Shown here piece by piece: positions 5,338 through 60,150 of a stretch of 64,000 nucleotides of DNA (position 1 is the first letter of the stretch; each line of letters begins with the position of its first letter). The position numbers and the translations under genes are program-made. A model generated the notes under the pieces. The model was not told where the DNA came from and did not search any database. It saw nothing but the letters and a program-made list of their open reading frames with translations. Origin of the DNA: Candidatus Methanophagaceae archaeon (lineage in GTDB: Archaea; Halobacteriota; Syntropharchaeia; Alkanophagales; Methanospirareceae); contig PQXC01000008.1 of assembly GCA_003194435.1 (NCBI GenBank), positions 19,773 to 83,772 of the forward strand. The letters are read 5' to 3'.

Positions 5338-6447
5338 TTATTTTAGCCTGACCCTGAACACCACGAGCATGATTATAAAAGTAAGCGATAGTGTCACGAT
5401 ATAAACAGCAGAGATGATTGCTGCTCGTTTAAATATGAAATCCTTCCTATTAAATGTGTCAAGAACGATAATGAGAAATAAAATCAGGAGATAAGCGATA
5501 AAACTGAATGATAAAGGTCTTAATAACCTCCACTTCTTCCGACCTTCTTCTCTGGCACCTGCTACTCCTGCACCCTTCAACAAACGCTTCACACGCTCTT
5601 CAGTTGCAGGCTGAGTACGAAACAGGAAGTGATAGCAGGGCAGTCGAAAGTCCAGCACCGTGAGCTCGCTATCATGTAACGGATTCACAATAAAGAGATG
5701 CGCATGTGCGGGATTAACCTCAAAATGGTGCGATTTTAAATGCTCTTCTATCTTGCGCAATGCACACGCCAGCTTATCCGGCTTTCCATGCAATAAGACA
5801 CTCTGTTCATCCGTCTGGTATTCCAGGTGACGGTGACGCGTAGTTAGCTGTATAATCGTAGCAGCTATTGGTGCAACCAGCGCAGTAACGAAGAATTTTA
5901 GTAGCTGTGGTGCCGGATCATCTTCCTGCCCAAATCCGGTGAGTATCGCGCCCCAGAAAGCGAGATTCGCGAGAGCAATGAGCATCCCGGCTAAGACCCC
6001 GGAAAAAGTCACAATTCCTATGGAACTATTCTTAATATTAATATGTGTGAGTTCGTATGCCAGTACAGCCTCCATCTCCTCATCGTCAAGCAGGTCTATC
6101 AATCCAGTAGTAAGAACAACAGAGGCATGTCTCTTGCTCCTGCCTGCTACAAATGCATTTGGCATCGCGGAATCCACAATGAAGACTCCTGGCTCAGGAA
6201 TACCTGCCTTTGATGCAAGCCTGTGTACCATCTCGTGTAGTTGAGCATGAGCATTACTTGTCTTCCTCGCATGGTACCAGCGCAGCAATAATCGGTCAGC
6301 AATGAGATACATGAGCAATATGAGCAGGAATAGCGCAAGAGCACCAATAGCAACAATGATTAACACTGGTGGTAGTGGTAATGGTAATCCCTGCCCGAAC
6401 ATCCCCCATCCAGCCAGAAGTTCTCTCATCTGAAATCTCAATTTCAA
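5338..6447 (-). CDS. htpX: HtpX-like M48 family zinc metalloprotease, membrane-bound
   Basis: N-terminal TM helices. HtpX-like block ...NAFVAGRSKRHASVVLTTGLIDLLDDEEMEAVLAYELTHI... (HExxH-type motif region). Confidence 0.65.
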   Translation of the reverse strand: MKLRFQMRELLAGWGMFGQGLPLPLPPVLIIVAIGALALFLLILLMYLIADRLLLRWYHARKTSNAHAQLHEMVHRLASKAGIPEPGVFIVDSAMPNAFVAGRSKRHASVVLTTGLIDLLDDEEMEAVLAYELTHINIKNSSIGIVTFSGVLAGMLIALANLAFWGAILTGFGQEDDPAPQLLKFFVTALVAPIAATIIQLTTRHRHLEYQTDEQSVLLHGKPDKLACALRKIEEHLKSHHFEVNPAHAHLFIVNPLHDSELTVLDFRLPCYHFLFRTQPATEERVKRLLKGAGVAGAREEGRKKWRLLRPLSFSFIAYLLILFLIIVLDTFNRKDFIFKRAAIISAVYIVTLSLTFIIMLVVFRVRLK

Positions 6448-48109: not shown

Positions 48110-51100
48110 TTATGCCCTCCTGCTGTTATTTCCATCACGCATCCTATTATACATATTCTGCGACTCTGAAAAAATATGAATAAGCCATCTACTCCCTTCT
48201 CTACTCTCCAAACGCTCAATCGCATTTCTTAAAACCTCCTCATCCATGTATCCCATTTCATTCAATCTCTCCTTTATATCATTCACAGAATCACTCCCTG
48301 AAAAAGAATGCAATAGTAGAATATGTCCTGCAACCACACGCTCACTTTCCTCTCCTAATCCTAATATCCAACCACAAGCCCTTATTGCATACTCTATTCT
48401 TCGCTCATTCGTGAAAAGATTTCCCGCACGCAGCATATCCTCCCTCGCTCTACCATACTCGCCTAATCTCACATAAGCGAGACCTCTGTTGTAGTATGCT
48501 TCCGCAAGATCAGGATTCAGTTTTATCGCCTTGTCGTAATCTTCTATCGCTCTATCATACTCGCCTAATCTCACATAAGCGAGACCTCTGTTGTAGTATG
48601 CTTTCGCATAATCTTTATTCAGTTCTATCGCCTTATTGAAATCTTCTATCGCTCTACCATACTCGCCTAATTCCGCATAAGCGAGACCTCTGTTGCTGTA
48701 TGCTTTCGCATAATCTTTATTCAGTTCTATCGCCTTATTGAAATCTTCTATCGCTCTACCATACTCGCCTAATCTCACATAAGCGAGACCTCTGTTGCTG
48801 TATGCTTCCGCAAAATCAGGATTCAGTTTTATCGCCTTATTGAAATCTTCTATCGCTCTATCATACTCGCCTAATTCCGTATAAGCGACACCTCTGTTGT
48901 TGTTGTATGCTTCCGCATATTCATTTAGTTCCAGAGATGTGCTATATGCCTTAATTGAACTCTCAAAATCCTTCTGTTCATATAAAGCATTTCCGAGATA
49001 GAAGAAATGTGCTGCAAGAGAGAGGCGAGCGATATCCTTTCCAGGAGCTTCAACATGTTCCACTTTTTTGAAATAATTGTAAGCGAATAGCAGCATGCGA
49101 GCATCGGGAGGTGCATTTTCTGCGGCATCCGCTATCAGGTAGAAGAAGCTCATATTTTTACCTTCATCAAAAGCCTTTTTTATCTCCTCTCTTATCACTG
49201 CCTTCGCATCCATTAAATCTAAAGAGGCTTCAAGGAACTTTTCAGCAAGTTCTCTATCTTCTATTCCGCCTTCTATCGCACTATTTATCGCATCTCGCCA
49301 ATACTGTGATAATGAATATAACCTTCCTTCTCTCTGCAGATATTTTTCAAGCGCCTCTTTCTGCTCTTTTGCCTCATTTCCTTGTGCAATTCTTTCATAA
49401 ATCGCATCATAAAGGAATATTGAGAAAATTCTGAGCTTTGAGATTGTGATTAAGAGCTTAATGAAAGTCATATCACTTTCATCATTACGCAATAATTTTC
49501 TTATTGTGTCCATCAGAATGTTCTTAACACCTTTTGGCAATCTCTCTATTTCTTCCATGCTGAGTGTTCTATTGTGATGTTCATGCATCAAATGTCGTAT
49601 GTAGAAAGGGGCGTTGTTTGACCTCTCAACCAATAATTGCATCGCTTTGTTCAGCACTTCGCTCATTCTTCCGCTCTCAATCATTTCACATGCTTCATCT
49701 GGAGGAATGCCAGCAATACTTACATTGAAATACTTTATGTAGCTCGCAATGATCTTCCACATATCATCCGTTTCAGGTTTTACTTCATAAGGTATCAGTT
49801 CAAACCCTCTATCATAAACAACTCTCTGAAGAATGTCCTTTTCAGAATTTCTCATCGTTATAATCATTTTTGCACGGTTTCTCTTTGCAAAATCAACAAT
49901 TCTCTCGCATTTATTCCTTAACGCTTCTTCCACATTGCCATTCGCTTTCAAATGTCCGAGAGCATCAATTACAATGAATTTCCTATATTCATGCTCAACC
50001 TGTGATATAGATGATTCGTATTCGTATGAATTAAGGAATATAACTTCTTCCTTCCCCCGCTCGATAATACGCTCAACAAGGAGAAGCATGTATGTCGTCT
50101 TTCCCACACCTATATCGCCGTGTATAGCGAGAATCTGCCCCTCCGAAGGCTCTTTAAACTCATAATAATTATATACGGTTGATTTGAACTCTTCCCATGT
50201 CTGAAATCCCTTTTTGTAGGGCGTTTCTAAAAATCTATCATCTTCAACTACATTCTTCAATTCATCTTCATTTCTCACGCGCTTATACGCCTCTATTGTT
50301 CTTATTGGAGGTCTTTCTTCAAGCTCAGGAGGTTCAATAACATTAAAATCAAGTTCAAAATGCAAATTGTATCGCTCAAGAACATCTCTTACACTATTCA
50401 ATTCCTCTTCGATTTTCTCTTTCACTTTATCTGCGACATTGTTTTCTTTGTGGTCTTTGTATTTCAGGAGCATTTCTACATATATCTCGCTTCCTTTTAT
50501 CTCTACTCTCTCCACTATTTCGTGTTTCCAGTATTCTTCCTGGGATTCCTGCGGGATTTGTGGTAGACGCCTGTAATCTTCTGGGGGTAGGCGATTCTTA
50601 CCGCAGTCAAGGGCATCTGCGAGCCTGAGCAATGCTGCTAAAAATCTTGTGCGAACATTCTCACCTGCGATATGAATTGTGCTCTCCTCATCAACATCAT
50701 TTATGGCAACCTTACTGCTGTGAGCACGGCAAATCCATTGAATAATTGTCGCTTCTGTTTTACCACTTAACTCTATTTCTCTCAAATGCTTGCTGATATA
50801 TTCAGCACTTCGCTTGTGATGTTCTTTCCTGATTCTATTGCAAACTTCAGGATCATTAATATCCTCACCTTCCCGCATTAACATCCCGATGTCATGGAGC
50901 CAAGCACTGCATTTCAGCAGGAAATTCTCATATTCACTTAGATTCACACCTTCGGTGAGTTTATCCAGTATTTTGATTACTGCCTCTGAATGCCCTGGAC
51001 CGTGGTCAGTGTAATATCTGAAAAGACCTTGAGAGTGTATATATGGTAGTTTTCGCATGCAAAACTCCTTTATTTTTTCAAGTCTTTCACCGAGATTATG

Positions 51101-51121
51101 ATTAGACATGAATCTCACCAT
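48110..51121 (-). CDS. HD-domain / P-loop NTPase / TPR-repeat protein (STAND-like candidate defence NTPase)
   Basis: N-terminal HD (HGPGHSEAV...AWLHDIGML...RLADALD); Walker A LAIHGDIGVGKTTYML; Walker B KFIVIDALGH; at least 8 C-terminal TPR units (AEAYxNRGLAYxxLGEYxRAIEDFNKAIELN). Confidence 0.6.
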   Translation of the reverse strand: MVRFMSNHNLGERLEKIKEFCMRKLPYIHSQGLFRYYTDHGPGHSEAVIKILDKLTEGVNLSEYENFLLKCSAWLHDIGMLMREGEDINDPEVCNRIRKEHHKRSAEYISKHLREIELSGKTEATIIQWICRAHSSKVAINDVDEESTIHIAGENVRTRFLAALLRLADALDCGKNRLPPEDYRRLPQIPQESQEEYWKHEIVERVEIKGSEIYVEMLLKYKDHKENNVADKVKEKIEEELNSVRDVLERYNLHFELDFNVIEPPELEERPPIRTIEAYKRVRNEDELKNVVEDDRFLETPYKKGFQTWEEFKSTVYNYYEFKEPSEGQILAIHGDIGVGKTTYMLLLVERIIERGKEEVIFLNSYEYESSISQVEHEYRKFIVIDALGHLKANGNVEEALRNKCERIVDFAKRNRAKMIITMRNSEKDILQRVVYDRGFELIPYEVKPETDDMWKIIASYIKYFNVSIAGIPPDEACEMIESGRMSEVLNKAMQLLVERSNNAPFYIRHLMHEHHNRTLSMEEIERLPKGVKNILMDTIRKLLRNDESDMTFIKLLITISKLRIFSIFLYDAIYERIAQGNEAKEQKEALEKYLQREGRLYSLSQYWRDAINSAIEGGIEDRELAEKFLEASLDLMDAKAVIREEIKKAFDEGKNMSFFYLIADAAENAPPDARMLLFAYNYFKKVEHVEAPGKDIARLSLAAHFFYLGNALYEQKDFESSIKAYSTSLELNEYAEAYNNNRGVAYTELGEYDRAIEDFNKAIKLNPDFAEAYSNRGLAYVRLGEYGRAIEDFNKAIELNKDYAKAYSNRGLAYAELGEYGRAIEDFNKAIELNKDYAKAYYNRGLAYVRLGEYDRAIEDYDKAIKLNPDLAEAYYNRGLAYVRLGEYGRAREDMLRAGNLFTNERRIEYAIRACGWILGLGEESERVVAGHILLLHSFSGSDSVNDIKERLNEMGYMDEEVLRNAIERLESREGSRWLIHIFSESQNMYNRMRDGNNSRRA
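48470..48910. repeat. Near-identical tandem array of 102-bp units (4-5 copies) encoding consecutive TPR repeats inside the HD-NTPase-TPR gene
   Basis: ctcgcctaat(c/t)(t/c)c(a/g)(c/t)ataagcgagacctctgttg..gtatgct(t/c)(t/c)cgca...atcgccttattgaaatcttctatcgctcta.catactcgcc recurs with a 102-nt period. Confidence 0.8.
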
Positions 51122-52681: not shown

Positions 52682-52748
52682 TGCCCCTCGGATGCCAATT
52701 TATTGCGGGGTAGCGAGGATTGGGCGTAAACTGGAAGATTAGTTAATA

Positions 52749-53114
52749 CTACCCTGTCGCATTTTCCGGCACATATATCACCTCGCCCGTTGTCAGCCGG
52801 TATGCAGTCCCCAACTTCCTGCCTTGTCCGCCCGCGACCTGTTCCGTCATATTCATCACCTTTATCTCCTGCCCCTTCTTGATAATCACCTGCATATTCT
52901 CCTGACCCGGATTCTTCACTACCGTTATATCTGCAGTCGGGTTCAAGAGCTCCGGGACGCTCGCGGATATTACCAGTGCGACGAGAAGAGCAACGGCAAA
53001 CACCATCGCGGCATCAAACAGGTTTGCGACCCCGTTAAGTGGGTCCTCCCCTTCCTCTTCATCCAGAATCAACCGATTTCGCCTCCTCCCGCTTCTCATT
53101 ACCATTACCATCAC
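52749..53114 (-). CDS. ExbD/TolR-like single-TM protein (DUF2149-like)
   Basis: Basic N-terminus, one TM (MVFAVALLVALVISA), periplasmic beta-rich tail. Translationally coupled to the MotA/TolQ-like gene. Confidence 0.4.
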   Translation of the reverse strand: MMVMVMRSGRRRNRLILDEEEGEDPLNGVANLFDAAMVFAVALLVALVISASVPELLNPTADITVVKNPGQENMQVIIKKGQEIKVMNMTEQVAGGQGRKLGTAYRLTTGEVIYVPENATG

Positions 53115-53117
53115 CTT

Positions 53118-53735
53118 TTATTTCAGTACCTCCACCACGTATTCCATATCACTCAAATCCTGCGTGTACCACCTCTTCTTGACCAATGAGATTGTGTATG
53201 CTATACCGCCGCTAAGAAGTCCGAGAACCGTAGTGCTGAATGCCACAACCAGATTAGTTGCAAGTTGCTGAATGTTTCCCGCAGTGAGCCCCATCAATGC
53301 AGGTCCTAAGGGTATCAATGTGCCCATCAATCCGAACATGGGTCCCAGCTTTACCACCAGCCTCGCCTTCTCGAGCTCCTTTGCTATCCTTAGTTCATAG
53401 TCCTGAAGCAGCTTCTCCGCTTCTACCGCGAATTTATTCTCTTTTAGCGATTCTGTAAGGTCATTCAGGAAACTTCTGAGGAAGTCATTAGAGCCACTGG
53501 ACCTCAGGACTTCTGCTGCTTTTTTGTAATCCTGCATCTGCATATATTTCCTTGCGGCTCTACACCCAACCTTTAGTTTGGCTATATCCCTGTTTCTCGA
53601 TGCATATTCTGATATTAACTGCCCTATGGAAATGAGCGACCATGCCACCAGCCCGAGCAGTATAATGATTACAGGGTAGAGCAACGAGTTCGAAATCATG
53701 AACATCGCCCCAATTATTCCAGAAGTTGCGTCCAT
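53118..53735 (-). CDS. MotA/TolQ/ExbB-family proton-channel protein
   Basis: 3 TM; conserved LGPMFGLMGTLIPLGPALMGL channel helix. Confidence 0.55.
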   Translation of the reverse strand: MDATSGIIGAMFMISNSLLYPVIIILLGLVAWSLISIGQLISEYASRNRDIAKLKVGCRAARKYMQMQDYKKAAEVLRSSGSNDFLRSFLNDLTESLKENKFAVEAEKLLQDYELRIAKELEKARLVVKLGPMFGLMGTLIPLGPALMGLTAGNIQQLATNLVVAFSTTVLGLLSGGIAYTISLVKKRWYTQDLSDMEYVVEVLK

Positions 53736-54454
53736 TTTTTGCCTCCTTTTTCGCTCTTCATTCTTTTATACTTATCCACTAAAAATCCAAGCACTATAAG
53801 AAGAGTCATTACTGAGAATGAGAGAACTATCTTATGATAATCTACCGGGAACTCAGGGCTTGGAATGCTTTTAGCCTGAATATATGCCGGGATTATTAAA
53901 GGGGATAAGAAGTAAAATAGACCGAAGAATAGCATAACTGTGCCAAGTGTGGAAGGGTTTTTGATTTTTAATACGCTTGCGATTGAAGAAGTAGCAAAGG
54001 AAGATAAGCACACACCGATAAAGAAAATCACGCCCACCAAAAAGCCTATTCTCAGATTGCTGATCCTGGTAAGTCGAGATAGCATCAGACAGGCTAAAAA
54101 TGTCGCTGTTAAACATACTGGACATGGAACAGAGAGCCAGAGGAAAGTTCTTCTTGAGAGGTCATTGCCACGAGAAAGCCATTCCCTCTTCGTTTTTATC
54201 CCGAAATACACAAGCCCTGTTGCGATGATAAGGTGCATTGTAACACCCATTGCAAGTATATTTTGCGTTACATTCAGAGGGATAACACCTACCAGATAGC
54301 CGAGTACGATAGAAGTAATGAAATAAATAAGAGCCACGTAAACAATCTCTCTTTTCCCCAAGTTGGCGAAACCGCATCCTAAACCTGTTTTTAATGCCAG
54401 GATTGCTACGCCTATAATCACCCCCAGTGTAATTAGATTGCTTATCTCTGTCAT
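53714..54454 (-). CDS. Polytopic membrane protein (about 7 TM), first gene of the MotA/ExbD-like operon (possibly DUF2162-like)
   Basis: Hydrophobic throughout; overlaps the MotA-like gene start by 22 nt. Confidence 0.35.
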   Translation of the reverse strand: MTEISNLITLGVIIGVAILALKTGLGCGFANLGKREIVYVALIYFITSIVLGYLVGVIPLNVTQNILAMGVTMHLIIATGLVYFGIKTKREWLSRGNDLSRRTFLWLSVPCPVCLTATFLACLMLSRLTRISNLRIGFLVGVIFFIGVCLSSFATSSIASVLKIKNPSTLGTVMLFFGLFYFLSPLIIPAYIQAKSIPSPEFPVDYHKIVLSFSVMTLLIVLGFLVDKYKRMKSEKGGKKWTQLLE

Positions 54455-54806
54455 TTATCTTCTGCCTGTGCTCAATTTCTTTGTATTTGGATGACGTTAT
54501 CTATCTTTGTATTTGGATGACAAATATTACCCCAATACGAAATAGATCTAAACACTCTCAAACGATGTGTCTCAATACGCTACTGGAGGAGACTGTAATT
54601 ACAGGATACAGGAATCGAAGCGAACCAATCCGGGACGGGGGAGATTTTTGCAATAGCACTCTTTCGAATCTCCTTCTGTGGAACGCTCTCCGCTTTCTTC
54701 TTGATGTCTTCATAAGTGACCGCCGATAGGGAGACTTGGACGAGAAAAGCGATTCCTTTTGTTGTGTATCCCTTTTCTGTAATTTTATTTCCTCCTGAGT
54801 TTTTAT

Positions 54807-56528
54807 TCAGCAATCAACGGGTTCTAACATGTCATCATCTGCTGGCGACTCCCACAATGGCTTAAACAGCACACCTAATGTTCCGTCAGGGTCGGCTTTC
54901 CACTGTGCAATGTGCATTGCATCTGCCATTGTTACATCTCCATCGTCCGTAGTATCTGCACACTTGAGTTGACTCGCATTAAGACTTCTCAAGCCTGCTT
55001 TATACTGTGCAATGAACATAGCATCTGCCATTGTTATGTGCTCATCCATCGTGACATCACCTTCCATAAGTGTTGGGTTCACTTCAAATGTTCCATCAGT
55101 GACGGTATGCGGTATTGTGTTAGCACTTGCATCGGTTAGTTCCTTAACGTCAAGGTCTAACGAGCTTTTGTCTCCTGTATTTCCTACTGCTTTCAGTGTT
55201 ACGTATGCGAAAACAAAATCGCCTGTCTTTCCCGTAGCTGAGAACCAGGTCATCTTTGTCACGCCGGCTGCATTGTCTATTCCTGTTGTTACCGGACTGA
55301 GGTCTCCTTCTGATACGCTGTCCACGATTACTACGTCTTTGTTATACGATAGCCAGATGTTTGCAGTTCCTAAATTGGTGACATTTGTTATGCGAATTGG
55401 CACGGTAACCGTTGAACCCCTGGGCGCGGATGCTGATTCAATTGAGACTGTTGCTTTGCCATCTTCGCTTATGCAACACCAGCTCGGATCCAAGTCATCT
55501 GCAGAATTACTCGTTAGCTTCCTAACATTTGTTCCATCTGCATTCATCGCATAGATTTCCCAATCACCATCACGCTCTGAGGAAAACGCAATCTTCGTGC
55601 CATCAGGAGACCATGAAGGCACATAATCGGTATGGTAAGGGTCGTTTGTCAATCTGACCAAGTTGCTCCCGTCGGAGTCCATCACGTATATCTCTCCATA
55701 TGCACCATATCTGCCAGGAGTTATTTCAAGGAAACCATGGCGGAAGGAGTAAAACACTATTTTATCACCCACAGGAGACCAAGCAGGAGAACAATCGTCC
55801 ATCTTAATGCCTTTTGAATACGCTGGCGAAATGAGCCTTCGTTTGTTAGATCCATCCGCAGAATTCATCACATAGATTTCACTTCCGCCCATCGCAAAAA
55901 CAATCTTGCTACCATCGGGAGACCAAGCCTGATTACTGATTATAGCATGAGGATAGGCAAGGCGCTTAAGATTAGACCCGTCCGCATTCATCACATAGAT
56001 GCCGGTATTCGTGACAGAACTCCCAGACCTGAATGCAATCTTCTTACCATCTGGACTCCACGAAGGGTCCAAGTCTACGATTGAATTCTTAGTAAGCTGC
56101 ACTACATCAGAGCCATCGGAGTTCATCACATAGATCTCCAAATCACCGTCTCTATCTGAGGTAAAGGCAATCTTGGTCGCGTCTGGTGACCACACGGGGT
56201 TCCTATCACTTGCTGTATTATTCGTTAGCTTCTTAACATTTGTTCCGTCTGCATTCATCACGTATATCTCATCATCGCCGTCCCTATTCGACCTGAAGAC
56301 AATCTTGCCAACCAAATCGCCAGCATCGGCAACGTTAATTGGATGTTCGCTTTCAGATACGCTCGTTTGGTTAACGATAACGCTCGTTTGATTAACGATA
56401 ATAGCACTGCTAATTATCGCGCCATCAGCGTCATAAATTTTACTCACATCACTTGATATAACAGGCAAAACCGTCAAAATAGACATCAATATTATCGCTG
56501 CCACTACTATTGCAATTTCTTTCTTCAT
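54807..56528 (-). CDS. Secreted modular protein: signal peptide + PD40/TolB-like beta-propeller repeats + cohesin-like domain + C-terminal dockerin-like repeat pair
   Basis: Repeated IYVMNxDGSNxxxLT...SWSPDGxKIAF (PD40). Cohesin-like IWLSYNKDVV...GDFVFAYVTLKAVG. Dockerin-like GDVTMDEHITMADAMFIAQ and DTTDDGDVTMADAMHIAQ. Confidence 0.55.
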   Translation of the reverse strand: MKKEIAIVVAAIILMSILTVLPVISSDVSKIYDADGAIISSAIIVNQTSVIVNQTSVSESEHPINVADAGDLVGKIVFRSNRDGDDEIYVMNADGTNVKKLTNNTASDRNPVWSPDATKIAFTSDRDGDLEIYVMNSDGSDVVQLTKNSIVDLDPSWSPDGKKIAFRSGSSVTNTGIYVMNADGSNLKRLAYPHAIISNQAWSPDGSKIVFAMGGSEIYVMNSADGSNKRRLISPAYSKGIKMDDCSPAWSPVGDKIVFYSFRHGFLEITPGRYGAYGEIYVMDSDGSNLVRLTNDPYHTDYVPSWSPDGTKIAFSSERDGDWEIYAMNADGTNVRKLTSNSADDLDPSWCCISEDGKATVSIESASAPRGSTVTVPIRITNVTNLGTANIWLSYNKDVVIVDSVSEGDLSPVTTGIDNAAGVTKMTWFSATGKTGDFVFAYVTLKAVGNTGDKSSLDLDVKELTDASANTIPHTVTDGTFEVNPTLMEGDVTMDEHITMADAMFIAQYKAGLRSLNASQLKCADTTDDGDVTMADAMHIAQWKADPDGTLGVLFKPLWESPADDDMLEPVDC

Positions 56529-56571
56529 TTTTTTTCACCTCCTAATTTTATTATCCCGCTTTTCTAATATT

Positions 56572-57858
56572 TTATGCAAGCTTTATTGCCGGTATCCAAC
56601 CACCGTATTCTTTACCATTCACATCTACGAACCCCGTGCAGTTTATCCAGCCCTTTGCAGTTGGCAGTGCACTTGTATGATGAATCTGCGGATAAGAACC
56701 GGTTCTTATTTCATAGTAGTATTCTTTATCTGCGAATAGCGTGAAAGGGTTGCCAAAGGCTATGCTATGCCAGTTGTCTTGATAGCCATCCCAAAAAGCT
56801 TCTTCACCACTCCACGTATCGTTCCATATCTTTGCATATTCGGTATGCCCGCCAGTGCCTGCGCAGGGATAGGTGTAAAGCGAAGATACAGTAATTGTTT
56901 GATTTGGCGTTATCGTTCCATAATGCGTACCGGGTATGGATGGATAGGGATTGACAGACTCTCCCGCGTCGAAGACCGACGATATTGTAAATGAGCCGTC
57001 CTCAACAGTATGCGATATTGCGTTTGCACTCATGTCGCCTAATTCCTTAACGTCAAGGTCTAAAGAGCTACTCTGTCCAGCACTACCGACTGCTTTCAGT
57101 GTGAGATAAGCAAAAACGAAATCCCCTGTCTTTCCCGTCGCAGAGAACCAGTTCATCCTCGTCACGCCTGCCGTATTGTTTATCGCAGCTGTTATCGGAC
57201 TGAGATCGCTTTCTGATACGCTCTCCACGGTCACAACGTCTTTATTATACGATAGCCAGATGTTTGCTGTTGCCATATTCTCAACATTTGTGATGTTAAT
57301 AGCTACAGTGACCGTTTCTCCGGGATTTGCAGTTGCCTCTTGAATTGATACTACTGTTGGCGCTGGTGACGGACTCGGTGCTGGACTTGCATTCCACGTT
57401 ATATTTCCGGTATAACAGGTATCCACATACGGAAAACGAACCGTCCAAGTATGACTATAAGTTCCGGTTGCAGAGTTTGGTGAAGTGAATTCTCCGTAAA
57501 TCCTTACTTCTCTATTGTACTGGAATTTGTTTTCAAGTATACTTAATGGAGGGATAATCAACGTAAAAGTTCTGCGACCCCTACTGCCACTGAAACAGAC
57601 ATAACTGTATGAGATGCTGAAGTTATACACCTGCATGCCGCTAACGTTAAATGAAACATTTTCGCCTTCCGAAGTAGTACCAACCCATGAGCCACTTGTT
57701 ATGGCTTCTGATAGCTCACTTAATGAACCCCCACACGGGTCACTCGCATTCGTTACATTTTCTCCCCCCGACATAACAGGCAGAACCGTCAAAACAGACA
57801 TCAATATTATCGCTGCTACCACAATTGCACATTCTTTTTTCTTTTTTCTTTTTTCCAT
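56572..57858 (-). CDS. Secreted protein with the same cohesin-like module (start at the second Met, giving a signal peptide)
   Basis: Signal KECAIVVAAIILMSVLTVLPVMS is almost identical to that of the neighbour. VSIQEATANPGETVTVAINITNVENMATANIWLSYNKDVVTVES...GDFVFAYLTLKAVG aligns with the 54807 protein. Confidence 0.5.
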   Translation of the reverse strand: MEKRKKKKECAIVVAAIILMSVLTVLPVMSGGENVTNASDPCGGSLSELSEAITSGSWVGTTSEGENVSFNVSGMQVYNFSISYSYVCFSGSRGRRTFTLIIPPLSILENKFQYNREVRIYGEFTSPNSATGTYSHTWTVRFPYVDTCYTGNITWNASPAPSPSPAPTVVSIQEATANPGETVTVAINITNVENMATANIWLSYNKDVVTVESVSESDLSPITAAINNTAGVTRMNWFSATGKTGDFVFAYLTLKAVGSAGQSSSLDLDVKELGDMSANAISHTVEDGSFTISSVFDAGESVNPYPSIPGTHYGTITPNQTITVSSLYTYPCAGTGGHTEYAKIWNDTWSGEEAFWDGYQDNWHSIAFGNPFTLFADKEYYYEIRTGSYPQIHHTSALPTAKGWINCTGFVDVNGKEYGGWIPAIKLA

Positions 57859-58212
57859 ATTACCTCCTAATCTTTTTCTATAGCGACTGAATGCCATATC
57901 TTTGATTGGCTGAAGTTATAAAAAAGGTTTACGGTATATTCCGCAGTCTACAAAATGTACTCTACATACTCTATAAAACCAGCGAACAAGAACAAGCACC
58001 TTTACGGCTACATCTCTATGTTGCCCAATAAGCACCCTTTGACTATCATGGTACTCCAGTTTGTGATTTTCGAACTCCTCATCGCTCACCGATAGCACTA
58101 TCTCCTTATTATCCTCGGTTATCGTGACTGGTGCGAGGTATTGCACGCCTAGCAGGTTTTGACGTAGAAACCGCAGGAGGAGGTGAGGAAGGAATTATGC
58201 TATATAAAGTTT

Positions 58213-59253
58213 TTAAATCCCCTGTAAGCCCACTTGCTCCTTCAGCAACTCGTATTCTGCACGTGTATGCACAAAGAGATGAAGATTCCCGAGCTTGACC
58301 CTTCGCAGTCCTGCATCTCTTGCCGCGTTATATGCCTCTATCATCTCTCCTAAATTTGGTACCGGGACGTCTCGCATCCTGTATTCAGGGAAGAAAGCAA
58401 GGATAGTGAAGGGTATATCAGCATCTATGGACGCAATGGTGCGAGCGATACTGGCTATCTGCGGTGTCTCAACCCATCGGGGAATAAATAAAGATGAGAC
58501 TTCAAGAACGAATCCCCGGTCCTTCAGCTCCGCTGGCAGTTTCGAGATGCGGCTGTTGGATACGCCGGTAAGCCTTCGGTGCACCTCATCATCAAACGCT
58601 TTGATATCGAGCCAGAATGAGTCTATGCCCGCTTGCTGATACCGGTCAAGGTTGTCAGGCGTGAGCCCATAGCCGTTGGTTTCCATGAGAATCCATACAC
58701 GCTCGTTACGCTCCTTAATCAATTCCGCTGACCTCACATAGAAGTCAGGCTGACAGAGCAGGTCGCCACCGGTGAAAGCGACTATGTTGCGGGCAGGACC
58801 CCAGCCCTGTTCACTCAGCATAATCTTATCGCGACTGAGCACACCGGGGCAGTTCTCACTCCTCACACCCCTCAGGACGCAACTGCCGCACGATTTACAG
58901 AGCTCGTGTGCATGCCAGCTCGTGGCGTGTTCTCGTTTCACAAATGTTATCTCCATGCCACTCATGTATCTCTCTACTGCTCCTGCTATATCCTCAGGAC
59001 ACATCCATTCACCCACGGCATTCTGTGTGAAGCGCCACGAATGGCATTTCTTACACTCGAAGTTGCAGCCCGATTGGTAGATGGAGAGGTAATGCTCGGG
59101 TCTTGACAGGATAATCGAGTCTATTAACCGGTATGGAACTCCGGCTCTGTACCGTAGCGTAACCTCACATGCCTTACCGCTTCTGCCAGTGCTGAAATCG
59201 AATACCTGGCAGCTTCCCGGCTCAAACCCCTGCTTAGCAAGTTCGCATTCCAT
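58213..59253 (-). CDS. Radical-SAM enzyme, PflA/AmmeMemoRadiSam-like activase family
   Basis: CNFECKKCHSW = Cx3Cx2C radical-SAM cluster motif with a trailing aromatic. Additional Cys-rich C-terminal region CKSCGSC. Confidence 0.5.
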   Translation of the reverse strand: MECELAKQGFEPGSCQVFDFSTGRSGKACEVTLRYRAGVPYRLIDSIILSRPEHYLSIYQSGCNFECKKCHSWRFTQNAVGEWMCPEDIAGAVERYMSGMEITFVKREHATSWHAHELCKSCGSCVLRGVRSENCPGVLSRDKIMLSEQGWGPARNIVAFTGGDLLCQPDFYVRSAELIKERNERVWILMETNGYGLTPDNLDRYQQAGIDSFWLDIKAFDDEVHRRLTGVSNSRISKLPAELKDRGFVLEVSSLFIPRWVETPQIASIARTIASIDADIPFTILAFFPEYRMRDVPVPNLGEMIEAYNAARDAGLRRVKLGNLHLFVHTRAEYELLKEQVGLQGI

Positions 59254-59262
59254 TCTATGCTT

Positions 59263-60150
59263 TTAGCGCTTTAAACGCGTGAATAACAAATCCACTATTT
59301 TCTCTGTGACATCAATACCGCAGGCTAATTTTATACCCCGTGCCGAAGGTGTAGCATTTATTTCAAGCAAATATAGACCGTCTGCGCTTTCTATGAGGTC
59401 AACACCGGCGAAATCGGCTCCCACTGCCTTCGTGGCTCTTATTGCAAGCTCGCACAGCTCTTCGGTCAATTTGCATTTACGCGGGCTCCCGCCCTGACTG
59501 AGATTAGAGCGAAAAGAGCCTGGTGGTGTAACGCGGTAGATAGCGCCTAAAGCAGTTTCTCCAACCACAAAGACCCTTATATCGCGTCCCGGGTTATGCA
59601 CGAACTGCTGTAAATAGAGCACACCCCTATCCTTCAGTAGTGCTGCCACTTTAGGGGCATACTCATAACCCTCAAGCTTGATTATACCCTTACCCTGACT
59701 GCCAAATATCGGCTTCACCAGCACCGAGCCAAAATCTTCAATCGCTCGTTTCGCAACCTCCAGATCGGCTGTTACCACAGTAGGAGGCAGAGGCAGGTGT
59801 GCACGCTGAAAGAGCACGAACGATAAGAACTTGTTTGCCGCGTTCTGTATAGCCACAGAGGAGTTCATAACGGTGGTGTGGCGCTCAATCTCAAATATGC
59901 GTATAAGGTCAAATTTAACAGAGATAAGGTCTAACAGGTTGCTAATACCCACATCACGAACTATAACCCCATCCATGCCATTTATATCCTCGGTCTCGTT
60001 GAGCCAATAGAGACCGGCATTGGTGATGGAAACGCCAATCTGTGCGAGATTAAGTGCCACAGCTTCCGCTCCTTTATCACGGATATTCTTCAGTATTGCT
60101 GTTGCAGTCCAGTCATCAGCCTCAGTAAGAACAACGCCGATTTTGCGCAT
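59263..60150 (-). CDS. RimK-family ATP-grasp alpha-L-glutamate ligase (MptN/CofF-like)
   Basis: ATP-grasp fold blocks (VLVKPIFGSQGKGI, LLEINATPS). ~295 aa, typical of methanogen MptN/CofF. Confidence 0.6.
   Translation of the reverse strand: MRKIGVVLTEADDWTATAILKNIRDKGAEAVALNLAQIGVSITNAGLYWLNETEDINGMDGVIVRDVGISNLLDLISVKFDLIRIFEIERHTTVMNSSVAIQNAANKFLSFVLFQRAHLPLPPTVVTADLEVAKRAIEDFGSVLVKPIFGSQGKGIIKLEGYEYAPKVAALLKDRGVLYLQQFVHNPGRDIRVFVVGETALGAIYRVTPPGSFRSNLSQGGSPRKCKLTEELCELAIRATKAVGADFAGVDLIESADGLYLLEINATPSARGIKLACGIDVTEKIVDLLFTRLKR

Follow-up and report, generated by a model that had tools for sequence, protein, structure and literature searches.

Two neighbouring genes of Archaeoglobus fulgidus carry cohesin and dockerin modules: AF_RS11975 (AF2375) encodes a COG0823 region (residues 31-235), a cohesin (221-359) and a type I dockerin (376-426), and the next gene, AF_RS11980 (AF2376), encodes a cohesin only (33-155) (Chadwick 2022 table, PMC9012536). 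It has been reported that the dockerin of ORF2375 binds the cohesin of ORF2376 strongly and specifically (PMC9705933, citing Voronov-Goldman 2011 and Haimovitz 2008), and the two are used in biotechnology as an orthogonal pair (PMC9705933, PMC12484212). In anaerobic methanotrophic archaea (ANME) the same modules are strongly expanded, one survey having counted as many as 80 domain hits for cohesin and 149 for dockerin in a genome (Timmers 2017, Table 2, PMC5244752), and a section of a second study treats these proteins and tabulates all of them (Chadwick 2022, S4 Data, PMC9012536). Combinations of PD40/COG0823 with cohesin were tabulated for Syntrophoarchaeum, ANME-1 ERB7 and ANME-2c (Timmers 2017; Chadwick 2022). 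The ANME proteins are viewed as non-cellulolytic (PMC9012536); their function was left open in both studies, with surface organisation or cell-cell contact being proposed (PMC5244752, PMC9012536). Here, two adjacent genes for secreted proteins of this kind, termed open reading frame (ORF) A and ORF B, were analysed in a stretch of 64,000 nucleotides (nt) from an ANME-1a archaeon (contig PQXC01000008.1, positions 19,773 to 83,772), which is referred to as the window.

In the product of ORF A, a signal peptide is followed by a PD40 propeller of six blades, a cohesin, a dockerin and an acidic tail; ORF B encodes a signal peptide, an unannotated N-domain, a cohesin and a C-terminal domain that we call domain X. 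Both are present head-to-tail on the same (minus) strand in the ORF list and its translation (Table 1). Taking all the evidence together, it seems fairly probable that A and B are a two-gene, probably bicistronic, non-cellulosomal cohesin-dockerin module of ANME-1 and a counterpart of AF2375/AF2376, which would act as a tether displaying the propeller and for which X would provide the address. As in A. fulgidus, the gene for a PD40-cohesin-dockerin protein adjoins a same-strand gene for a secreted cohesin protein, the cohesins match 2XDH (an A. fulgidus cohesin) best, by sequence for A and by structure for B, and no carbohydrate-active enzymes are involved. Unlike in A. fulgidus, the cohesin-only-type gene comes first, B is much longer than AF2376 (428 aa against 190 aa) through its extra N-domain and domain X, and the dockerin of A belongs to a separate subtype, marked by Thr in positions 3 and 9 of its loops and by a conserved acidic tail of 27 aa. 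Binding within the A. fulgidus pair is experimental, whereas the window pair is likened to it from sequence and a structural model.

Table 1 Features of the A/B locus, in order of transcription (positions in the window)
Feature	Position	Strand	Residues	Remarks
TATA-like box TTTTTTATAA	57916..57925	minus		about 60 nt 5' of the likely B start; read by eye
ORF B as listed	56572..57897	minus		441 aa; probable functional coding sequence 56572-57858, 428 aa
Ribosome-binding site of B, TTAGGAGGT	57862..57870	minus		precedes the likely ATG at 57856-57858
B signal peptide / N-terminal hydrophobic helix	57769..57858	minus	14-43 of the listed ORF	
B N-domain	57388..57768	minus	44-170	followed by SPAPSPSPAP linker
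B cohesin	56983..57354	minus	182-305	PF00963 51.6 bits, cut-off 24.1
Domain X	56575..56982	minus	306-441	unannotated C-terminal beta-sandwich, about 135 aa
Ribosome-binding site of A, TTAGGAGGT	56537..56545	minus		motif identical to that of B
ORF A	54807..56528	minus		573 aa; identical to PXF52577.1, hypothetical protein C4B56_05535
A signal peptide	56454..56528	minus	1-25	
Tandem heptad IVNQTSV-IVNQTSV	56358..56399	minus	44-57	N-terminal linker after the signal peptide; perfect duplication
Six-bladed PD40 beta-propeller	55464..56321	minus	~70-355	no catalytic domain attached
A cohesin	55080..55451	minus	360-483	PF00963 54.4 bits, cut-off 24.1
A dockerin	54891..55070	minus	487-546	two F-hand repeats
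Dockerin extension and acidic tail PDGTLGVLFKPLWESPADDDMLEPVDC	54810..54890	minus		specific to this dockerin subtype; kept in 20+ relatives

The source is a metagenome-assembled genome (MAG) of Candidatus Methanophagaceae, the ANME-1a "G60" genome, in which A was deposited as a hypothetical protein and in which CarA, also encoded in the window, is PXF52569.1. Locus tags with the prefix C4B56 are those of "G60", a thermophilic ANME-1a enrichment obtained from Guaymas Basin (PMC10702137), and the archaeal origin assumed in an initial annotation of this DNA, made from the sequence alone, is thereby confirmed. Both by lineage and as secreted modular proteins of that kind, the pair falls within the documented ANME repertoire (Timmers 2017; Chadwick 2022). 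It is absent from Chadwick's GB60 table, in which no row has a dockerin or COG0823, and a literature search found no mention of C4B56_05535. The closest locus in the reference genomes was that of Methanophagales SB_Co_68, with 83% amino-acid identity, and no further cohesin or dockerin was found in the window by tblastn and motif scan. The initial annotation had considered archaeal examples to be few and the combination with PD40 unusual. Neither view can be kept, since ANME genomes carry dozens to more than 100 cohesin/dockerin domains (PMC5244752, PMC9012536), and AF2375 already joins a TolB-like COG0823 region, a cohesin and a dockerin beside AF2376.

The modules taken for cohesins in both adjacent genes are genuine cohesins by hidden Markov model (HMM) for A and B (both above the PF00963 threshold, Table 1) and by predicted fold for B. 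When B was modelled with AlphaFold2 from an alignment of 68 sequences, residues 180-305 had a predicted local distance difference test score (pLDDT) above 90 and formed a nine-stranded beta-sandwich that superposes on solved cohesins. The best Foldseek match was 2XDH (template modelling score (TM) 0.83, root-mean-square deviation 2.1 Å, E=3.8e-9, 23% identity in the structural alignment), confirming the cohesin fold; type I cohesins came next (TM 0.76-0.80), and type II and III fitted less well. The fold evidence thus comes from the cohesin of B, to which that of A is linked through 72% identity; the best PDB sequence match of the A cohesin was also 2XDH (E=3.7e-7).

The two cohesins are 69-72% identical in protein (69% over 131 aa); in DNA their identity is 78.8% for the best-matching 312 nt and 74.5% for the full 369 nt, in line with the figure of about 80% noted initially. 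Because dN/dS between them is 0.23, both copies are, as judged from this sequence comparison, under purifying selection. The signal peptides are indeed nearly identical (21 of 24 residues, 88%), and their DNA is 86-87.5% identical over 72-81 nt, with a match that runs upstream into the ribosome-binding site TTAGGAGGT; A and B would both be exported via these similar leaders. A local duplication, as had been proposed, is supported by the 5' ends and cohesins that both genes share, but a synonymous divergence (dS) of about 0.85 makes it old, and a recent duplication was rejected.

The dockerin of A scored 27.8 bits with the Pfam profile Dockerin_1 (PF00404, cut-off 22.9; residues 490-540, profile positions 2-52 of 57), so the HMM check suggested with the initial annotation is passed by the dockerin as well as by the cohesins. 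It consists of two tandem segments of about 22 residues each, a calcium-type loop followed by a helix, which start 34 residues apart at D491 and D525; repeat 1 is DVTMDEHITMADAMFIAQ and repeat 2 is DTTDDGDVTMADAMHIAQ. The loops read D491-V-T-M-D-E-H-I-T-M-A-D502 and D525-T-T-D-D-G-D-V-T-M-A-D536, both running into ADAMxIAQ (written out as F-hand-like repeats, DVTMDEHITMAD and DTTDDGDVTMAD, each then AMxIAQ), and in DNA they share 87.5% identity within the best 40 nt and 73% across 66 nt. The double repeat described earlier therefore holds in that two F-hand-like loops are present, each having Asp in positions 1, 5 and 12, but it is not the same 18-mer twice. The canonical calcium ligands of dockerins are Asp or Asn at loop positions 1, 3, 5, 9 and 12; in A the residue at positions 3 and 9 is Thr in both loops, and this pattern is subtype-wide. 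Both repeats carry the same recognition residues, TMADAMxIAQ, which suggests, by analogy, a symmetric dual binding mode as in type I dockerins (a mode named in the titles of PDB entries 2VN5/2VN6). The subtype also has a C-terminal extension with the consensus DPDG[TS]LGVL[FY]KPLWESPADD.ML.PV.C, present in 20+ relatives; more than 20 relatives, at 59-99% identity, keep both loops, the recognition helices and the tail of 27 aa.

The propeller of A matched PD40 in Pfam with 148.8 bits (cut-off 20.9) and contains six blade motifs of the form (E/G)IY(V/A)M(N/D). Because no catalytic domain accompanies it in A, the propeller most likely serves as a non-catalytic ligand- or protein-binding module. 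The complete architecture of A is rare among database proteins: of the 120 relatives listed as scoring best, only A's own 90% cluster (35 members) and P0196 had PD40, cohesin and dockerin together, although the domain parts of A are freely shuffled among paralogues. Within the propeller, blades 1 and 6 (55500-55559 and 56211-56270) share 85% DNA identity over 60 nt (DGDDEIYVMNADGTNVKKLT and DGDWEIYAMNADGTNVRKLT), far above the other blade pairs, which suggests intragenic conversion or a recent blade duplication. In the linker before it, each copy of the tandem heptad holds an N-x-T sequon, so that a glycosylation site may have been duplicated.

B most likely starts at the ATG at 57858, which is Met14 in the ORF as listed and yields a product of 428 aa, because its ribosome-binding site is shared with A and the gene was called at 428 aa on an independent contig (L001). 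A and B are probably bicistronic in the order B then A. A single transcript fits the layout since the spacer between the stop of B and the start of A is 43 nt, the ribosome-binding sites are identical, and a TATA-like box was seen on reading the sequence 5' of B only and not 5' of A; this box might be the archaeal promoter of a B to A transcript. In the model of B the leader helix spans residues 21-36, with a V-x-S motif as the presumed cleavage site. The N-domain that follows was modelled with low confidence (pLDDT below 50) and had no family match, Pfam matching nothing in B outside the cohesin. It recurs at 74% identity in P0006, on the metagenome contig L082, and at 33-35% identity in N-domain-cohesin-X proteins of other ANME-1 genomes.

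Domain X, which was missing from the initial annotation, is the best-conserved part across the relatives of B: among 120 homologues it remains at 55-70% identity where the attached cohesin falls to about 30%. Its pLDDT in the model of B was above 90, and modelled alone it forms a beta-sandwich of about 11 strands (pLDDT 91.7, predicted TM 0.86). Searches of Pfam, NCBIfam, PHROGs and PDB sequences gave no match to X, also when a profile of 28 sequences was used; the families returned by these searches were chance WD40 or multicopper-oxidase matches (E>0.01) and were rejected. Foldseek against PDB and BFVD returned nothing at E<=1e-3. The best structural match was a PHR domain (TM 0.53, E=2.9e-3), with CBM35, CBM3 and phage tail-tip beta-sandwiches as other weak neighbours, none of them significant. 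Residues H324, C344, H350, E352, H406 and C419 are near-invariant, as are Asn residues, and D424 is invariant; the domain is 17% aromatic and has a D-x-N-G loop. On sequence grounds, these conserved residues and the aromatic content suggest a defined binding or metal site, possibly with a disulfide.

The distribution of X is wide within one lineage. An exhaustive search gave 1,032 cluster representatives (741 at E<=1e-30) on carriers of up to about 1,900 aa, and a scan of reference genomes gave 551 stretches, several per genome. Nearly all came from Methanophagales/ANME-1, Syntrophoarchaeum, Alkanophaga, or unclassified Methanosarcinales/Halobacteriota MAGs. X lies at the extreme C-terminus in about 95% of the 150 representatives listed, ending at most 7 residues from it in 101 of 105 cases, and its passengers include PKD, beta-helix/NosD, FN3, Big_2/Big_5, M23 peptidase, phospholipase D (PLD) and PD40 domains. 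X appears to be a new, undescribed, lineage-restricted C-terminal domain family; a literature search found no description of it, of the alternation of dockerin and X treated below, or of the present dockerin subtype.

Several other origins and roles of X were considered and rejected. A few X contigs are labelled as non-ANME, namely L025 and L059 (Nitrosotalea sp.) and L051, L062 and L081 (Deltaproteobacteria/Desulfobacteria). Transfer to a bacterial partner was rejected since the neighbours on L081 and L062 are archaeal-type (on L081 GatE above cut-off with weaker Dph6 and aCPSF1-like matches, on L062 an HdrA2-like protein), so that these are likely mis-binned ANME-1 contigs. A role as a viral receptor-binding module was rejected on finding one locus among 2.9 million viral contigs. 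This sole contig, L087 (IMG/VR UViG_3300029813_000255, 80.6 kb), encodes a secreted X protein of 255 aa at 5611-6378, flanked by paralogous small secreted proteins and a 1,675-aa beta-helix/FN3-like protein, and is perhaps a provirus or else a contig of the host wrongly classed as viral. According to Medvedeva et al. 2024 (PMC11576556), the core of the archaeal sheath (SH) proteins is amyloid-like and built of two sheets with six strands each. X as such a core was rejected, its motifs TGSYPQI, GTGGH, WIPAI and YPSI being absent from the sequence and HMM supplements of that study; no sheath protein was among the PDB matches of X, which is a weak test by motif and fold search.

Genes for cohesin-X proteins repeatedly adjoin dockerin genes in the relatives. 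On L082, a 6.9-kb contig of a close relative with the same dockerin subtype and cohesin type as the window, the genes in one direction encode a dockerin fragment, a 272-aa protein (signal peptide, unassigned passenger, dockerin), a 304-aa protein (signal peptide, cohesin, X), a 313-aa protein built like the 272-aa one, a 309-aa protein built like the 304-aa one, and a 673-aa protein (signal peptide, N-domain, Big, PD40, X), so that two pairs of a dockerin protein followed by a cohesin-X protein stand back to back. The passengers of these dockerin proteins had no detectable relationship to the B N-domain. Loci L003 and L005 have the order dockerin, cohesin, cohesin-X, cohesin-cohesin. On L011 a cohesin-cohesin-dockerin gene (3-1019) adjoins a cohesin-cohesin-X gene (1030-2499), and the two products are 100% identical over 277 aa (cohesin, Pro/Thr/Ser linker, cohesin) before ending in dockerin and X, respectively; this identity reflects either a very recent duplication with a swap of the C-terminal module or a repeat-induced assembly artefact. 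An A-like propeller-cohesin protein (P0004/L002), 82% identical to A, has X in place of the dockerin. Across these loci, the dockerin subtype varies together with the type of the neighbouring cohesin. When redundant loci were counted once, a dockerin lay within 3 kb of 4 of 15 independent cohesin loci and of 1 of 66 X loci without cohesin (Fisher p=0.0036), a comparison that is conservative because many contigs are short. The recurrence of adjacent cohesin paralogues that end in either dockerin or X appears to be new.

By analogy with A. fulgidus, the dockerin of A, with two symmetric, presumably calcium-binding F-hand repeats, would plug into the cohesin of B; the pairing is proposed because of the A. 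fulgidus precedent and the recurrent, co-varying adjacency. Since the cohesin of A is 72% identical to that of B, the same dockerin might also plug into the cohesin of another A, giving short head-to-tail chains. The six-bladed propeller of A would be displayed outside the cell, and B would be the base unit, in which the conserved X would serve as an address or a binding module and bring the assembly to a fixed target. This target would most plausibly be the cell's own envelope, in which case X might be an anchor, a functional analogue of the SLH domains of anchoring scaffoldins. A self-assembling surface complex, as the initial annotation had it, is thus the best reading, and its most likely form is a calcium-dependent dockerin-cohesin tether that shows the propeller on the cell surface.

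Two groups of known proteins help to place B and X. Like cellulosome anchoring scaffoldins (Clostridium thermocellum OlpA/OlpC types, 3UL4, 4DH2), B combines a cohesin, closest in fold to type I as in those proteins, with a C-terminal module proposed to fix it to the surface, and would receive dockerin proteins. Unlike them, it has neither an SLH domain nor a sortase signal, its C-terminal X, a putative anchor, is unrelated, the cargo is a binding propeller instead of an enzyme, and the host is an archaeon without peptidoglycan. The C-terminal domain of the type IX secretion system (T9SS) of Bacteroidota and the SLH domain are conserved C-terminal sorting or anchoring domains found on diverse cargo. 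X resembles them as a small beta-rich C-terminal domain on hundreds of unrelated secreted proteins of one lineage, but it has no sequence or significant structural similarity to them, is larger (about 135 aa) and far more conserved, and no associated machinery was identified for it. A wider reading can be put forward as a tentative possibility: X may be an undescribed envelope-targeting domain specific to ANME-1, Syntrophoarchaeum and Alkanophaga and so supply the surface anchor so far missing in archaea for which no S-layer-domain proteins are recognised, signal peptide-cohesin-X proteins may be minimal anchoring scaffoldins, and cohesin-sharing dockerin/X pairs may build anchored, self-extending chains that display PD40-type modules toward syntrophic partners.

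Several observations weigh against the tether and its anchor. The dockerin score is just 5 bits over the threshold, and Thr occupies positions 3 and 9 of both loops, where Asn/Asp is canonical. A bacterial scaffoldin's own dockerin usually does not bind its own cohesins, which makes chaining from A to A uncertain. P0091 combines a dockerin-like loop, a cohesin and X, so that dockerin and X are not strictly exclusive; in this 393-aa protein from a JGI metagenome, the single dockerin-like calcium loop, DANQDGEVNVLDATKV, lies near residue 84, upstream of the cohesin and X. The anchor role is proposed for X from its position and conservation, with no informative structural homologue, and the His, Glu and Cys residues that are near-invariant in X might rather belong to a catalytic or metal site. 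Finally, all-against-all clustering of the neighbours at 80 loci gave only antisense shadow ORFs as conserved genes beside X carriers.

The most probable of the alternatives, which we nevertheless consider unlikely, is that X would be a functional head and not an anchor, either a lectin-like or metal-binding module for extracellular polysaccharide, mineral or partner surfaces, or a small enzyme; the cohesin would then simply bring dockerin proteins to the place where X binds. The aromatic content, the near-invariant His, Glu, Asp and Asn residues, the D-x-N-G loop and the weak resemblance to CBM35, CBM3, PHR and phage tail-tip folds all agree with this. However, none of those structural matches is significant, and X has no similarity to any enzyme family in Pfam, NCBIfam or PDB sequences; a single invariant target accords better than diverse ligands with its place at the extreme C-terminus of more than 1,000 different carriers and with its unusually strong conservation between paralogues and between genera.

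Somewhat less likely again is adhesion between species, in which the dockerin of A or the two cohesins would bind, instead of each other, complementary modules on the sulfate-reducing partner (HotSeep-1 for G60) and so glue the consortium together or sense the partner. Syntrophic sulfate-reducing bacteria including HotSeep-1 encode cohesin/dockerin proteins that are absent from free-living relatives, such proteins are expressed by both partners, and a role in the partnership was proposed (PMC10553843, PMC9012536). The co-variation of dockerin subtype with the adjacent cohesin type and the tandem cassettes point instead to cognate pairs within one genome, and the A. fulgidus pair binds in a cis-genomic fashion without any partner organism (PMC9705933). 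The two ideas are not exclusive, as a self-assembled complex could contact the partner via the propeller or X.

It is improbable that the modules are degenerate, the dockerin no longer binding calcium or cohesin and the cohesins being Ig-like spacers in generic surface proteins. The marginal dockerin score and the Thr residues at loop positions 3 and 9 would suit such decay. Against it, Thr side chains are able to coordinate calcium in EF-hand-type loops, the loops, recognition helices and tail are kept across the relatives of A, and the cohesins are under purifying selection.

A highly improbable idea is an archaeal Tol-like system, in which the propeller of A would work with an ExbB/TolQ-like channel encoded 352 nt downstream (DUF2162, MotA/ExbB, DUF2149). 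These genes are on the same strand as A, and the best NCBIfam match of A is TolB. The TolB model TIGR02800 covers only the propeller part of A, however, with 203.6 bits against a cut-off of 343.15, and Pfam finds no TolB N-domain (TolB_N), so the TolB-like label given initially holds for a generic PD40 propeller but extends neither to TolB itself nor to a conserved ExbB-like link. A PD40, cohesin or X gene stood alongside the triad in 0 of 63 loci, relatives that are 93-97% identical over the triad DNA lose homology to the window about 160 nt downstream of the A stop, and the SB_Co_68 homologue of A has different neighbours; the link was rejected at the level of conserved gene linkage. A true cellulosome-like complex that degrades polysaccharides is equally improbable: cohesin and dockerin are hallmark modules of cellulosomes, but neither the locus nor the window contains a glycoside hydrolase, a CBM or a scaffoldin with several cohesins, the passenger of the dockerin is a PD40 propeller, each protein has one cohesin, and the organism is a methane oxidiser whose lineage's proteins are viewed as non-cellulolytic (PMC9012536). 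The cellulosome-style character named in the initial annotation thus applies to the assembly logic alone, and an SLH anchor is missing as well.

The surroundings of the pair in the window showed some features of their own. The genes for DUF2162 (a predicted transporter), the MotA/ExbB-family protein and DUF2149 (52749-54454, minus) form a rigid three-gene cassette, of which at least two genes were detected in 41 of 41 loci of at least 4 kb where the scan found it, and ExbB in 61 of 63 loci overall (L088-L150). In the 93-97% identical relatives, homology is limited to about 52741-54649 of the window and both flanks differ, pointing to variable genomic contexts. The genes directly upstream of B, on the same strand (58213-60150, minus), are those of a radical SAM protein and an ATP-grasp ligase of the RimK type, with no evident link to the surface proteins A and B. 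Further away, the product of 48110-51121 (minus) is 1,003 aa long and joins an HD-CE/HD domain at its N-terminus to a STAND-type NTPase and C-terminal TPR repeats; its gene lies where the guanine-plus-cytosine content is lowest in this part of the window (0.39-0.40 at 48-52 kb, about 0.47 elsewhere). PADLOC matched its TPR part only; it could be a defence or signalling STAND protein on acquired DNA.

ANME-1 consume methane in marine sediments only in tight partnership with sulfate-reducing bacteria, and the organisation of their surface is little understood: no S-layer-domain proteins have been recognised in them, and sheath components were proposed only in 2024. Cohesin/dockerin proteins are abundant in ANME, none of them with an assigned partner, and A and B offer a minimal, tractable pair from a cultivated thermophilic enrichment (G60) with a validated template in A. 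fulgidus. The cohesin-dockerin finding alone is an expected, so far unannotated member of a documented repertoire; what it adds is domain X and the alternation of dockerin or X, which give a testable model of how ANME-1 build their surface. If X were the envelope anchor, the positioning of hundreds of surface proteins in ANME-1 would be accounted for, and X would provide a sequence tag for predicting the ANME-1 surface proteome.

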